Positions 748 to 62,805 of a stretch of 64,000 nucleotides of DNA are shown here, piece by piece. Positions within the stretch are counted from its first letter, which is position 1. The number at the start of each line of letters is the position of its first letter. The position numbers were made by a program, and so were the translations under genes. Source of the DNA: Eledone cirrhosa (Eukaryota). Where the stretch lies: positions 232,748,001 through 232,812,000 of the forward strand of contig OZ024743.1 of the NCBI GenBank assembly GCA_964016885.1, written 5' to 3'. The notes beneath the pieces were generated by a model. The model was not told where the DNA came from. It saw nothing but the letters and a program-made list of their open reading frames with translations, and ran no database searches.

Positions 748-986
748 ATAGTATAAAGAAAACAAAAAATCAGTGATGCATCTGGACTTATTTTATTGCG
801 TGTTACAATTGTTCGTGATAAAATTTGCTCCTAACGAAAAAATAGTGTCTGAATGATCCTGCAGAAGTAGAATCAGCCGGATCCATACAAGGACCATGTC
901 TCGAGCTACCTGCCGGATAAACAATTGTAACACGCAATAAATTAAGTCCATATGCATCACTGATTTTTCGTTTTCTTTATACTATC
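748..986. repeat. Foldback element, arms about 748-813 / 919-986
   Basis: gtataaagaaaac...tgttacaattgtt is the reverse complement of aacaattgtaaca...ttttctttatac. Confidence 0.9.
845..933 (+). ncRNA. Hammerhead ribozyme, degenerate core
   Basis: gtgt-CTGA(A)TGA-tcc.gcag..ctgc.gga-TAAA-caattg-TA-acac. Confidence 0.6.
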
Positions 987-1864
987 TACACTCTACTCTA
1001 ATGAATATCGAGTGCTAATTTTGGCATACCGCCTATGGAAGCACCATAGCTACCATTATACACAACTATATATATATAATTTACGAACTTGTGCATCTGC
1101 TGTGGTGTCAAAAACAAACGCGCATGACCGCACAGATAAACAATGGACCACGCCACGTGCTTGAACCCGTAAGTGAATTGAAGGTTCTGCAACTCTGATA
1201 CACAGATTATTTATTATTAAGATGTATAAACTTGACATAACTATTATCATCTATATTCTCTCAACTAATCACACTTGATCATATTTCTCTATCCCGTTTT
1301 CTCCTCCCATAATTATTATATTTTTATTATTATTTGAAAAAATCGTTTTTTTTTTACATTGTGTTTTCCCCTCCAAATATTCGCTTATATTTCTTTATAT
1401 ATTCTCTATATATTTTTTTAATCTTTATTATTTCCCCTTTTATCCTCCTTTATATTTTACCTTATTCTTACTTTTATACCTTATTATAGTGTAATCTTCC
1501 CCATGCCTTATTATACACTATTAATTATAGATTATTATTATTACTCTTTTTCCATTTCTAATTACCTCATGTACTTTCTCCTCCGCTATATATATATATA
1601 TATATATATTGTATGCCCTTTGTGTTTGTGTAGCTCTGCGCACCCTCTGCACCATACTATCCACGCCACCCCATCTATGGTTCAGCTAACCACTCGACTC
1701 CCGGGAATGAATATGACCGCAGCTAGTAAACAAGGATCCACACCCCACCCTCCCGCACCAAAATTAGACTTATCGTCCCCTACTTTTGCTCTTTACTCTC
1801 TTTACTCTTTGTTCTTGAATGTTTGGTTGGTAGAGTCCATAACACCAATCAAAGCCCTTTTATA

Positions 1865-1909
1865 GCTCTGACGAATCCTACGGTTACGTAAGGAAGAAAC
1901 ATTGTAAGC
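1865..1909 (+). ncRNA. Type I hammerhead ribozyme
   Basis: gct-CTGACGA-atcctacg gtta cgtaagga a-GAAA-cattg-TA-agc; second copy at 59423-59468 minus. Confidence 0.8.
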
Positions 1910-2267
1910 CAATAAAAATCTTTTGATATTGTAGACGCTCTTGTGTTCTTTTTCATATATATATATATATATATATATATATATATATATATAGAGAGAG
2001 AGAGAGAGAGAGAGAGAGAGAGAGAGAGAGATAGTTAGATATATATATAAGTATACATAGATAAATATGCCCATGTATATATATGCATGTATGTATGTGG
2101 TGTGTGTGTGTGTTTGTAGGAGTTGAGTTGAGCCGTAATGTAACCAAGTGTAATAATAACGTAATGACAACAGAAAATCAGATTCTGTCGCCATACATTT
2201 CTTTCTGGTAGAAACATATACATAAACATATACATATGTGTATATATGTATATATGTGTATATATAT

Positions 2268-2502
2268 GTATAACGAAGAAAGTGTGGTAAGGAACCAGGT
2301 GAACCATAACGCACCAGAGTACTCAATACTTATGGTAGTAGAGTGGGTAATAGGAAAATGTTCAAGACCCTGACGGCAGAGCTCAAGCCGTTTCGACGCT
2401 ATAAACAGAGAGAGAGAGAGAAGACTTATTAGGAGCAATATATCAATTTATTTTGACATATTGCTCCTAATAACAGTCTTCTCTCTCTCGCTCTCTGTTT
2501 AT
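2268..2502 (-). mobile_element. PLE terminal fragment (family also at 23520-23660, 43137-43405, 53230-53300) followed by a short hairpin 2400-2502
   Basis: Shared sequence between copies; minus strand carries the 3' half of an HHR (GAAA-cggc..gccg-TC). Confidence 0.6.
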
Positions 2503-2666
2503 GTCGAGCTCCCTTATTTGAGTGGTTTTGGGATGCGTTTTCTAGCGTCTCATGCCACCCGAGCCACTAGTTTACTGTCCCATGCACACATTTCCTTCTC
2601 TCTACCCCGTGTTGCAAGGCAGTTATCTTAAGTTCTCTTAGAGTTGTATGGAATGTATTCACTTAA

Positions 2667-2749
2667 CACGCGCGCTGACGAACCAGGGTGTTTCTTTCCA
2701 TACACTAATCTTTTGGCGAAACAAATCTCTTTGAATTTGTATGTGTGTG
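2667..2749 (+). ncRNA. Type I hammerhead ribozyme
   Basis: cacgcgcg-CTGACGA-acca..tggc-GAAA-caaat..atttg-TA-tgtgtgtg. Confidence 0.75.
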
Positions 2750-59422: not shown

Positions 59423-59468
59423 GGCTTACAATGTTTCTTCCTTACGTACCCGTAGGATTCGTCAGAGC
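59423..59468 (-). ncRNA. Type I hammerhead ribozyme
   Basis: Copy of 1865-1909 within a relic of about 100 bp between (TA)n. Confidence 0.8.
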
Positions 59469-59649
59469 TATAAAAGGGGTTTGATTGGTGTTATATATAT
59501 ATGTATGTATATATATATATATATATATATATATATATATATATATATATATATATATATATATATATATATATATATATATATGTATATGTATATATAT
59601 ATGTATATATATATATATATATATGTATGTATATATATGTGTATATATA

Positions 59650-60860
59650 TATTTATTAAAATAACAGATTAAAGTTTAAGCAAAGAATCGCTGCTTTCAC
59701 CCTTAACGGGATCTTCTGAAACTAACAAAGTCAATCTGTAAACGCAGAAGTGGATATTTAAAAAAACGTTGCAACCGGAGGAAGACAGGAAGACGATACT
59801 TTGGTTCGTGGAAACGTTCGCAGGCAAACAACGGGAAAAAACGAATATAATACGTCATTAATAGGAGCGGTGAAAAACAATTACGCGCAAAGAGAGAACC
59901 ACGTTGATGGTATAAAAGAGGTCGTAGATTATGTTCTCTTAGGTGGTTCATAGAGACGTTCTCTGGCAATGAACGAAAAAAACGAAGATAATATGTGGAG
60001 CGTAGAGAACAATAGCACGCAAAGACAAAACCACGTAAATGGTGTAGCAGAAGTCGTAGACTAAAATTCTAACAAGGAGACCGAATGAATCTCCGCTACA
60101 GAGTTAAGAACAAAGTAAATAAATACAATACAGAAGTAATAGAAATAAATAAATACATACACGCAAACAAGTACGTACATACACAAGCATACGCAAAACA
60201 CTTACCATAGGTATACAAAACCACGCACATATAAATATGTGTGTGTGTGTATGCGTGTATACAAATAAATAAATAATTATATAAACGTATATAAATAAAT
60301 AAATGCGTATATAACAAGCACAAAAACATACCTACATGTAAATACACGAATGTTCGGAGACGTAAGTCAACCAAAACATGAAGTACACATATACAAACAC
60401 GCTACATACGTACGAACCTGCATACTCACACAGACACAAAAACTCCCGTATACACATAGCTAAACCATATGTACCAGAAAATATAAAATTATACGCCATA
60501 ACATAAACAATCAAATGTATACGTACCTTCACAAATCATACGGGTAATATATATACCTATGCAAATAAGTAATGGTATAAAGAAAACATATACTTAGCTC
60601 CCACATCAAGACGTAAAATATCCACGTATAGATCGTACTATCCGTTAGGGTATAACGTGGGGCTCTAATACAGGAAGGTTTTGTGCAATTTATGTTTACA
60701 AGCCGAAATTGCCTCAGATTTTTTGTTTAGGGTGAAAGCAGCGATTCTTTGCTTAAACTTTAATCTGTTATTTCAATAAATATTTGCTCTACGGTTCTTA
60801 TATATTTGATATATATTTATCCTTATCGAGCCCTCTTTGGATTTTAGTCTTCAAATGTAT
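59650..60860 (-). mobile_element. PLE-type 3' region with short inverted arm (59650-59703 / 60730-60783); related pieces at 5460-5660 and 3045-3140
   Basis: Shared sequence; CAGAAGA-tcccgttaagggt-GAAA HHR-like motif. Confidence 0.6.
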
Positions 60861-60994
60861 TATTATTATTATTATTATTATTATTATTATTATTATTATA
60901 TATATATATATATATATATATATATATATATATATATATATATATATATATATGGAGGAGGTTATAGTTCACTTGAAGCATTGTGTAATGAGGT

Positions 60995-61913
60995 ATAAAC
61001 GTTTGAATATGTGTAATAAAGCCAAAACAATGCAGGTATGCACATAGAAAAAAGAATGCAATTGTAAAAGATATTGTTGACAATTCGTCCTTTACCTTGA
61101 ATTTATTTAAATGTCCTTAATTTTCGAGATAATATATCTTCTTCAGAGGGAAATAAATCTCTCAAACCAGCGTTCTAAATATCTAACCAATCCATGCTGA
61201 CAGGAAATAGTATAGAGTATCTGTTCTATCTCTAATATCAAAGAGTTAAAATTAGGTGGATAAAGAGTAGTCTCCCTTTAAAAGGGGTTTATTTAGGGTT
61301 TTTTTATTTTTTATTTTATATACATGCCTGTGTAAGTGTGTGGGAGAATGCCTGATAGGGCCTCTAGCCCCATATTTACACCACCCCCACACACACACAC
61401 GCACGCGCACACACACACGCTTACACCTCCACTTATTCTCTCTCACACATACACACACAAAACCAGTTCTAACACCAGATAACACCTACCCCCACATTTA
61501 CGATTAGACTTATCTTCTCACACTCACACACTCACACACTCACACACTTACACCTTCATGCATTCTCCCACACACTTACACAGGCATGTATATAAAATAA
61601 AAATTTAAAAAAACCCTAAACAAACCCCTTTTAAAGGGAGACTACTCTTTATCCACCTAATTTTAACTCTTTGATATTAGAGATAGAACAGATACTCTAT
61701 ACTATTTCCTGTCAGCATGGATTGGTTAGATATTTAGAACGCTGGTTTGAGAGCTTTATTTCCCTCTGAAGAAGATATATTATCTCGAAAATTAAGGACA
61801 TTTAAATAAATTCGAGGTAAAGGACGAATTGTCAACAATATCTTTTACAATTGCATTCTTTTTTCTATGTCCATACCTGCATTGTTTTGGCTTTATTACA
61901 CATATTCAAACGT
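60995..61913. repeat. Foldback element, arms about 60995-61351 / 61560-61913
   Basis: Reverse-complementary arms of about 350 bp. Confidence 0.92.
61763..61797 (+). ncRNA. Minimal type I hammerhead ribozyme (mirror 61115-61149 minus)
   Basis: cct-CTGAAGA-agata tat tatctc-GAAA-at-TA-agg. Confidence 0.75.
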
Positions 61914-62394
61914 ATATCTATATATATATACATATATGTATATATATGTATATATATGTATATATATGTATATATATATATATATATATATATATATATA
62001 TATATATATATATATATATATATATATAAGTGTATATATATGTATATATATGTATATATATATATATGTATATATATGTATATATATATATATATGTATA
62101 TATATATATATAAATAAATATATATATGTATATATATATGTATATATATATATATATGTATATATATATATATATATATATATATATATATATATATATA
62201 TATATATATAATATATATATATATATATATGTATATGTATATTTCTATGTATATATATTTTTTTTTTTTTTTTTTTTTTTTTTTTTTCTCAGTATATGTT
62301 GGTTGTATACCAACAACTCAGTATGGAGATTGGAGCACTCGACGAAGTGCGCAGGTTAGTTTGGTTACTCCGGAGTAATGTAAAATAAAATAAA

Positions 62395-62805
62395 ATAAGT
62401 CAAATGTTAAAAATTAGGCTTCGTTTATTACTGCTATATATATTTTGGTGACAGCCATAATTCGCTGTGACCTCTTCAGTCAGTCCGAATTAGTGTGGTA
62501 GACACGAGTACACATGTTGTTGAGGTGTATAACCTTGTCAATACTCTGATATGCCCAGTTCCTGGTTGTTATTTCTCTGAGGAACTGGAATCATATCATA
62601 TGATTCCAGTTCCTCAGTGAAATAACAACCCAACCAGGAACTGGGCATATCAGAGTATTGACAAAGTTATACACCTCAACATGTGTACTCGTCTCTACCA
62701 CACTAATTCGAACTGCCTTAAGAGGTCACAGCCAAAGATGGCTGTCACCGAAATATATATAGCAGTAATAAACGAGGTCAAGTTTTAAACATTTGACTTA
62801 TTTAT
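62395..62805. repeat. Palindrome centred near 62598 with HHR-like motif at 62712-62766
   Basis: actgc-CTTAAGA-ggt.acagc..gctgt.acc-GAAA-tatata-TA-gcagt; the opposite arm keeps CTGAAGA. Confidence 0.85.

Follow-up and report, generated by a model that had tools for sequence, protein, structure and literature searches.

A 64,000-nucleotide stretch of the Eledone cirrhosa genome (G000:C4:232,748,001-232,812,000; hereafter the window) contains 20 clear elements in which two 5′-truncated copies of a Penelope-like element (PLE) are joined head to head, mostly within (TA)n, with one copy terminating at a short 3′ end (S) and the other extending further to a long 3′ end (L). The same coupling of one S end with one L end is evident in pairs of two families collected elsewhere in this 3.0-Gb genome. 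This end asymmetry is absent from the original prediction, which described about 20 ribozyme-bearing foldback elements in the same DNA. We propose, with a probability of roughly 75%, that head-to-head pairs of 5′-truncated PLE copies in (TA)n are formed by twin priming on one RNA, a reading derived from finished insertions.

End structure of the inverted pairs

The window (33.5% GC, 14% microsatellite) was searched for local inverted pairs by self-BLAST after masking, which yielded pairs spanning 105 bp to 6 kb. Twenty of the 29 pairs examined are clear elements, four are partial and five are unrelated, and therefore the approximately 20 foldback elements predicted earlier are real. In 19 pairs, one arm comes within ~15 nucleotides of a microsatellite (24 nucleotides in one case), mostly (TA)n of varying length, and the opposite arm extends another 40 to 145 nucleotides, here called the tail, before reaching microsatellite. 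The remaining clear element (6036-7088) has the same end pattern, as established by direct reading of its sequence. One end is unclear in four pairs (13703-14126, 23268-23826, 41756-43024 and 53519-57190). Five inverted pairs were excluded as elements (2401-2502, 3810-4029, 43300-43403, 45429-45492 and 50829-51488), the last of which consists of two opposed copies of a dispersed repeat.

Copies of two families were located genome-wide by motif patterns. Family A is present in the window at 5692-6014 and 58853-59198; its 34-nucleotide terminal motif has 41,538 genome matches at no more than one mismatch, and its head-to-head pairs have 137 to 4,994 nucleotides between motifs. Family B, which is present at 43134-43336 and also at 2276-2400, 23522-23658 and 53235-53289, has 63,278 motif matches. 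Each family has two 3′ ends, separated by ~90 nucleotides in family A and ~80 in family B, and the S and L ends are complementary within pairs. One of each is found in 28 of 30 family A pairs (P = 4e-7 versus a 50:50 expectation), 40 of 42 family B pairs (P = 2e-10 versus 50:50) and 34 of 37 further family B hairpins. Rare pairs with two L ends exist in both families. Of the two family A exceptions to the rule, loci L045 and L046, the latter has flank duplicated outside its short ends and resembles a passenger copy.

Which arm carries the tail is random. Among the 30 family A pairs, the L end resides on the arm that is longer in the 5′ direction in 12 and on the shorter arm in 12, with four symmetric pairs and two that carry LL or SS ends. 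Arm lengths for this family were measured against sense-only references; a library with inverted parts confounds short pairs. Likewise, the L end is on the longer arm in 13, on the shorter in 11 and on arms of equal length in six of 30 short family B hairpins.

Some products show no overlap between the two arms and consist of an inverted tail-only piece joined to a sense arm ending at S. One narrow family B pattern for such products has 133 matches genome-wide, and S is on the sense arm in all 20 inspected, whereas the same pattern with the sense start shifted 18 nucleotides downstream has only 13 matches. Products of this type represent three of 24 unpaired family A ends, and the window holds one at 3037-3140.

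Both arms of a pair derive from one source template. Haplotypes were compared for 74 family B and 29 family A pairs, a set obtained after removal of one of the 30 family A pairs and of five of the 42 family B pairs, which were mis-paired, nested or the copy in the window. Arm haplotypes are identical in 52 of the 74 family B pairs versus 18% under random pairing, and two different recurrent haplotypes are combined in only three. For family A, arms are a median of 99% alike within a locus compared with 89% between loci.

The same S/L asymmetry is seen in the 20 clear window elements, which are included in the following list (plus and minus signs after positions denote the strand of a ribozyme core):

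751..1066: head-to-head element with a short left end and a ~87-nucleotide tail on the right, where the arm bears a degenerate ribozyme core
3037..3140: product without overlap; a tail-only piece in inverted orientation and ~20 nucleotides of sense short-ended arm; family of 59640-60865
5692..6014: family A hairpin with its tail (long end) on the left and its short end on the right; complete type I hammerhead on each strand (5878-, 5918+)
6036..7088: minus-strand partial tandem with an inverted arm (6959-7088); the left end is short and the right end long
7149..8749: element with a left tail, 507-nucleotide arms and a microsatellite spacer; cores 7333- and 8605+ are U3-A8 variants
13545..14130: probable element whose left end is unclear
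14639..16108: element with a short left end and a tail on the right; the right arm contains an inserted copy of a dispersed repeat
16436..16621: minimal hairpin; tail left
22708..23141: hairpin; tail left
23198..23826: probable element with an unclear right end; the family B copy 23522-23658 interrupts it
25656..26307: element; tail left; hammerhead 25998-
30621..36747: 6-kb element; broken reverse transcriptase (RT)/endonuclease open reading frame (ORF) on the plus strand in the loop (32976-34800); tail on the 5′-shorter left arm
32277..32456: minimal hairpin with a left tail, inserted in a (TA)n tract of the 6-kb element
36757..37146: hairpin with a left tail, from an element resembling family A; core 37037+
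38001..38388: hairpin; short end left, tail right
38657..39183: element with a left tail and a microsatellite spacer
39212..39918: element; tail left; cores 39529-, 39662+
41756..43088: element with an endonuclease fragment (42106-42513, minus strand; CxCx5C linker); the tail is on the right and the left end is unclear
43134..43336: minimal hairpin of family B with a short left end and a 79-nucleotide tail on the right; both arms end inside ribozyme loop II
53330..57191: 3.8-kb element; broken RT/endonuclease ORF on the minus strand (54144-55960); the right end is short, and the left end is placed approximately
57211..57867: element; tail left; core 57474-
58853..59198: hairpin from a second family A subfamily, with a left tail and a complete hammerhead on each strand (59038-, 59093+)
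59640..60865: element with a short left end; the 5′-shorter right arm carries the tail
60954..61918: element with 362-nucleotide arms; tail left; cores 61146-, 61766+
62291..62817: hairpin; tail left

Coding relatives and ribozymes

The hairpins are truncated insertions of coding, autonomous PLEs, because long arms of the same families hold RT/endonuclease ORFs and the tail is the element's own 5′ untranslated region (UTR). As judged by motif reading, the long family A arms at loci L049, L046 and L032 carry an ORF with an RT and, at its C terminus, a GIY-YIG endonuclease, and many open frames of 740-760 amino acids from this family occur in the genome. At family B locus L102, an inverted 514-nucleotide arm is joined to an RT/endonuclease ORF that is followed by a 3′ UTR and the same terminus. 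In 20 of 25 loci, 113-122 nucleotides separate the tail from the ORF start downstream of it. The earlier description of the window elements as non-coding is correct for the short ones and fails for three with RT or endonuclease fragments in their interior. Over the aligned parts, these loop fragments share 59-62% identity with family A, and the closest proteins are 34-43% identical and unnamed. Pfam gives no matches for the six window loop fragments, and therefore the PLE assignment is based on motifs.

As is typical of PLEs, 5′ truncation, partial tandems and adjacent inverted copies are all seen, together with a terminal repeat that carries a predicted type I hammerhead. Motifs in families A and B and in three window elements also suggest features of the Hydra clade of PLEs (PMC8557442; comparisons here and below refer to the portions of each report that were consulted). 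The shared characteristics are a DKT motif (family A loci L211 and L215), a CxCx5C linker (loci L049, L046 and L102, and window fragments 42109-42513 and 54147-54707), CxxC and CxH beside the conserved endonuclease E and N residues (in the translation of L049, where no CCHH is present as judged by eye), a C-terminal endonuclease, a ribozyme and insertion into (TA)n. Loci L211 and L215 have RWR at the position of the RWK motif. The Hydra clade has been described as a small family set, whereas at least two families have tens of thousands of terminal copies here.

Hammerhead cores (CUGANGA, stem II and GAAA) number 20 in the window and zero in a reversed-sequence control, and full three-stem folds number 10 and zero, respectively. 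No Rfam family reaches its gathering score in the window, and at E values up to 1 only microsatellite-driven microRNA matches appear among the best 150 of 307. The original prediction was thus right that ribozymes are present, but a hammerhead on each strand is not general: no more than about five elements have a core in either orientation (5878-/5918+, 7333-/8605+, 39529-/39662+, 59038-/59093+ and 61146-/61766+), and many arms are truncated within the ribozyme. A U3-A8 covariant core is found in family B (ribozyme region of L102) and in the family of the 7149-8749 element. The ribozyme is likely a passenger of the terminal repeat.

Proposed twin priming and its alternatives

The route that we favor would begin with the GIY-YIG endonuclease cutting both strands of (TA)n, which has the same reading on each strand. 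One target 3′ end would then prime at S and the other at L, with the tail between these two observed termini. If the L-primed complementary DNA (cDNA) halted within the tail, the outcome would be an inversion without duplication, as in the no-overlap products described above. If it passed S, the arms would be duplicated, and this would require strand displacement on the one RNA. Finally, the 3′ ends of the two cDNAs would be joined head to head by some end-joining pathway; the junctions themselves display short overlaps or a few added bases. Because two primers on one RNA give all of the product classes, twin priming is favored. The lizard PLE PAc has been found in vitro to nick or cleave and extend both strands, and to start at two sites on its RNA that bracket the tail; the protein is a predicted dimer and the ribozyme is dispensable (PMC11167929).

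Junction data bear on several of the explanations considered below. Family A junctions differ at each locus examined (19 pairs of less than 800 nucleotides), and 32 short family B hairpins contain 31 distinct junctions. When recurring junctions were deliberately collected, the commonest in family B (12 copies) was found on five haplotypes and in both tail polarities, with the tail on the shorter arm in six, on the longer arm in four and without a full tail in two. Five haplotypes and both polarities mean that this junction formed repeatedly at a favored site. Two loci, L141 and L151, share junction, polarity and haplotype, and occasional re-copying of hairpins may occur in such cases. The original prediction had proposed asking whether fold points are shared or scattered. 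They differ between loci in family A and are tightly clustered yet independently formed in family B, so this comparison alone is insufficient. The prediction's specific example of hairpins near 5779 and 58945 folding at almost the same point is not borne out, as the two are ~80% alike, have different junctions and differ in the spacing of their anchor motifs (137 versus 154 nucleotides). Overlaps at family B junctions are noisy in such AT-rich sequence, and added bases are present in 14 of 30; no enrichment of microhomology is claimed.

Alternatively, a single cDNA or antisense RNA might fold back and copy itself, with the end asymmetry arising later from one-sided deletions at the apex. This explanation has been published for inverted PLE insertions (PMC3846280), and is consistent with the haplotypes shared between arms and with the several junctions located at short palindromes or natural mini-hairpins. 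We nevertheless consider it unlikely, and our polarity data are at odds with it. The tail is missing from the would-be template arm in about half of the cases, which self-copying could not easily produce: a copy cannot gain a tail absent from its template, nor can it lack overlap with that template. Furthermore, an identical junction occurs in both polarities, leaving no room for later deletion, in products without overlap the sense arm ends in one and the same stop zone (133 versus 13 matches), and one pair combines arms of two haplotypes that differ at three sites. For the class with the tail on the shorter arm, self-priming is largely refuted. The link to PLE integration made in the original prediction is supported, and its foldback step in the strict sense is disfavored.

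A symmetric palindromic DNA intermediate with a tail on both arms, from which the endonuclease trims a random arm at S during integration, would account for the random polarity and the shared haplotypes, and rare LL pairs do exist. The tail has also been ascribed to endonuclease-mediated resolution (PMC8557442). However, products composed of a tail-only piece and a sense arm would need an extra deletion, and the two tail ends of PAc are RT start sites on RNA in vitro (PMC11167929); this scheme seems improbable.

Still less probable is a non-autonomous, self-propagating hairpin class resembling retrozymes, with a hammerhead per strand. Similar short hairpins do exist in the thousands (8,204 matches, with most hairpins counted on both strands) and some junctions recur, including the one common to L141 and L151. 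Set against this are the many distinct junctions, the recurrence of one of them on five haplotypes in both polarities, the absence of the ribozyme core from both arms of most family B hairpins, and the coding members of both families. A transcript of 5783-6013 would be predicted to form a 111-bp duplex (-166.6 kcal/mol) that buries the ribozyme, and the sense ribozyme is always located in the arm that is transcribed second. Non-LTR (long terminal repeat) retrozymes are likewise short and non-coding, with a type I hammerhead and an origin in PLE terminal repeats (bioRxiv 10.64898/2026.07.22.740005), but they are head-to-tail tandems with a whole ribozyme per unit. Here the hairpins are single head-to-head pairs with the ribozyme often cut off, and no tandem monomer arrays were found. 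The suggestion of such a class is not supported.

An assembly or library artefact from foldback reads is scarcely credible, and had been judged less likely in the original prediction. Arms differ by substitutions and nested insertions, and they stop at element-defined S and L sites instead of continuing into unique flanks. Three sequencing runs of one other study supply raw short reads, of which ~2,700-3,100 per run show S ends on (TA)n; L ends on (TA)n are seen too, and two opposite-strand joints fall in the fold zone, although from only one to three start places. Among the contigs and read pieces listed, none spans the window's own junction at 5898. Read depth falls at the boundary discussed below; these libraries are restriction-based and many reads stop there at AATT, and depth was not used. 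Miniature inverted-repeat transposable elements and foldback DNA transposons have symmetric terminal inverted repeats and a conserved unit, and were rejected given the asymmetric ends and variable centers of the elements studied here.

Several considerations weigh against twin priming. All of the evidence comes from finished insertions, and gene conversion between arms could mimic a shared template. Moreover, the family pairs were taken from exact-match lists on contig C1, which favors young copies, and the class with both arms short is in part defined by pair distance. For PAc, the start site is the same on top and bottom strands, and the consulted portions of that report do not describe coupling of one S with one L start (PMC11167929).

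A further question concerns where the cDNAs stop. The original prediction held that sizes scale continuously, but the genome-wide distribution is a pile of minimal hairpins with a broad tail. In the smallest hairpins, both cDNAs would have halted at a fixed boundary in the terminal repeat, at which stops are directly evident. Upstream of the family B anchor, 82 of 97 arms end at 0-20 nucleotides, none at 21-39 and 15 beyond 40; genome-wide, 19,953 arms reach -15 and 4,949 reach -22, with sequence variation responsible for part of this drop. The cut-off coincides with an initiator-like word inside ribozyme loop II (as judged against the initiator and TATA consensus sequences). Among long family B pairs, seven have both arms long, and three mis-paired or nested examples were set aside. 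Family A subfamilies share a conserved YCACT word at about -137 to -142; of the 48 arms that measure less than 165 nucleotides, 16 terminate 0-13 nucleotides below it. The two arms fall on the same side of this site in 28 of 30 pairs (15 both short, 13 both long, two mixed; Fisher P = 2e-6).

There are about even odds that this boundary is the transcript 5′ end, in which case the cDNAs run off their template and both the family B cut-off and the family A site would mark the transcript start. A number of findings count against this assignment. The terminal motif is present upstream in 17 of 25 ORF-start loci, of which one ends at the initiator-like site and two within ~16 nucleotides past it, and most run 160-400 or more nucleotides upstream. 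In family B, the TATA-like word shares sequence with ribozyme stem II, and one subfamily lacks it. A structural pause is a possible alternative cause, because copies extending as far as the ORF start mostly continue well beyond the site. We are doubtful, though not greatly so, of the fuller scheme in which two-primer integration on the 5′ terminal repeat of one transcript is obligatory and minimal hairpins are paired run-off ('strong-stop') cDNAs.

Relation to described systems and other window features

The architecture described above is already in print; the S/L rule behind it was not found there, and the elements do not form a new class. Inverted pseudo-LTR (pLTR) insertions of endonuclease-positive (EN+) PLEs are known to be head to head with a tail on one copy and palindromes at junctions (PMC3846280), and inverted copies with a one-sided tail in (TA)n targets have also been described (PMC8557442). 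These insertions and ours share a head-to-head 5′-truncated copy, junction palindromes, a tail at one end, microsatellite targets and a terminal-repeat hammerhead. They differ in that the tail is 40-145 nucleotides here and 30-40 there, is almost strictly on exactly one arm here and optional there, and minimal hairpins occur here in the thousands. Dual hammerheads 100-700 bp apart on opposite strands, along with the U3-A8 core variant, are known from Schistosoma PLEs, for which the consulted portions of the report propose no mechanism for the pairs (PMC4209133). In L1 twin priming, the second target end likewise primes on the same RNA and the cDNAs are end-joined, but the second primer acts at variable internal sites and the pieces barely overlap (PMC11702581), whereas start sites here are fixed and arms are usually duplicated. 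The S/L rule, twin priming or strong-stop products for PLEs were not found in the open literature searched, supplements aside.

The origin of PLE tandem and inverted insertions has been called undefined (PMC8557442), and self-priming is the only published explanation that was found (PMC3846280). Tens of thousands of young insertions obey one rule, with one short end, one long end, random polarity and one template, and these copies make this mechanistic question directly testable. The rule also links the in vitro findings for PAc to genomic structure and gives predictions for that system (PMC11167929). If transcribed, the near-perfect hairpins, which number in the thousands, would serve ADAR and Dicer as substrates. 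If the run-off reading is true, each abortive event would leave a near-perfect hairpin, and much of the long double-stranded RNA (dsRNA) in this genome could stem from these elements. Heavy editing of Penelope in lizard and an exceptionally abundant potential for near-perfect dsRNA in octopus have been reported (PMC5625713).

Two long ORFs lie outside the hairpins. On the minus strand, 10443-12794 is an uninterrupted 784-amino-acid ORF with RT and GIY-YIG domains (Pfam RVT_1 and GIY-YIG), a DKG motif and a CX4CxxC linker; it is Neptune-like and belongs to another clade than the hairpin families. On the plus strand, 27650-30058 is a long open PLE-like ORF of ~800 amino acids with C-terminal endonuclease motifs and no Pfam match, preceded by an in-frame asparagine-rich (AAC/AAT)n run and accompanied by a hammerhead-like core at 30338. 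A repeat-tail-short interior-repeat unit of ~640 nucleotides without an ORF (6036-6958, minus strand) may be an internally deleted non-autonomous PLE.

Composite joins were also observed. At 2272-2760, an inverted family B arm is followed by a 102-nucleotide hairpin and then, head to head, by the ribozyme-bearing 3′ end of another family (2675+), and locus L051, near C1:467,000, has a similar B-to-A join; two different RNAs were possibly primed at the two target ends. At 43365-43945, a 35-nucleotide inverted copy of a variant of the neighboring element's tail is joined to the 5′ end of another family's 540-nucleotide arm (ribozyme 43621+), which may represent a locally templated junction. The raw reads additionally contain tail-to-tail joints of L end to S end (~500 reads per run, 40-66 start places), and elements nest in each other's flanking (TA)n to give chains of abutting insertions.

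Finally, two dispersed repeats recur in the window. One of 180-190 nucleotides (15690-15805, 17549-17925, 24976-25083, 50807-51488 and 56511-57070) is often tandem, is inserted into PLE arms and by reading resembles a short interspersed nuclear element. The other, of at least 600 nucleotides (19602-19818, 23803-24432 and 62909-63515), is 97% identical between two copies and adjoins (TATG)n or (TA)n.

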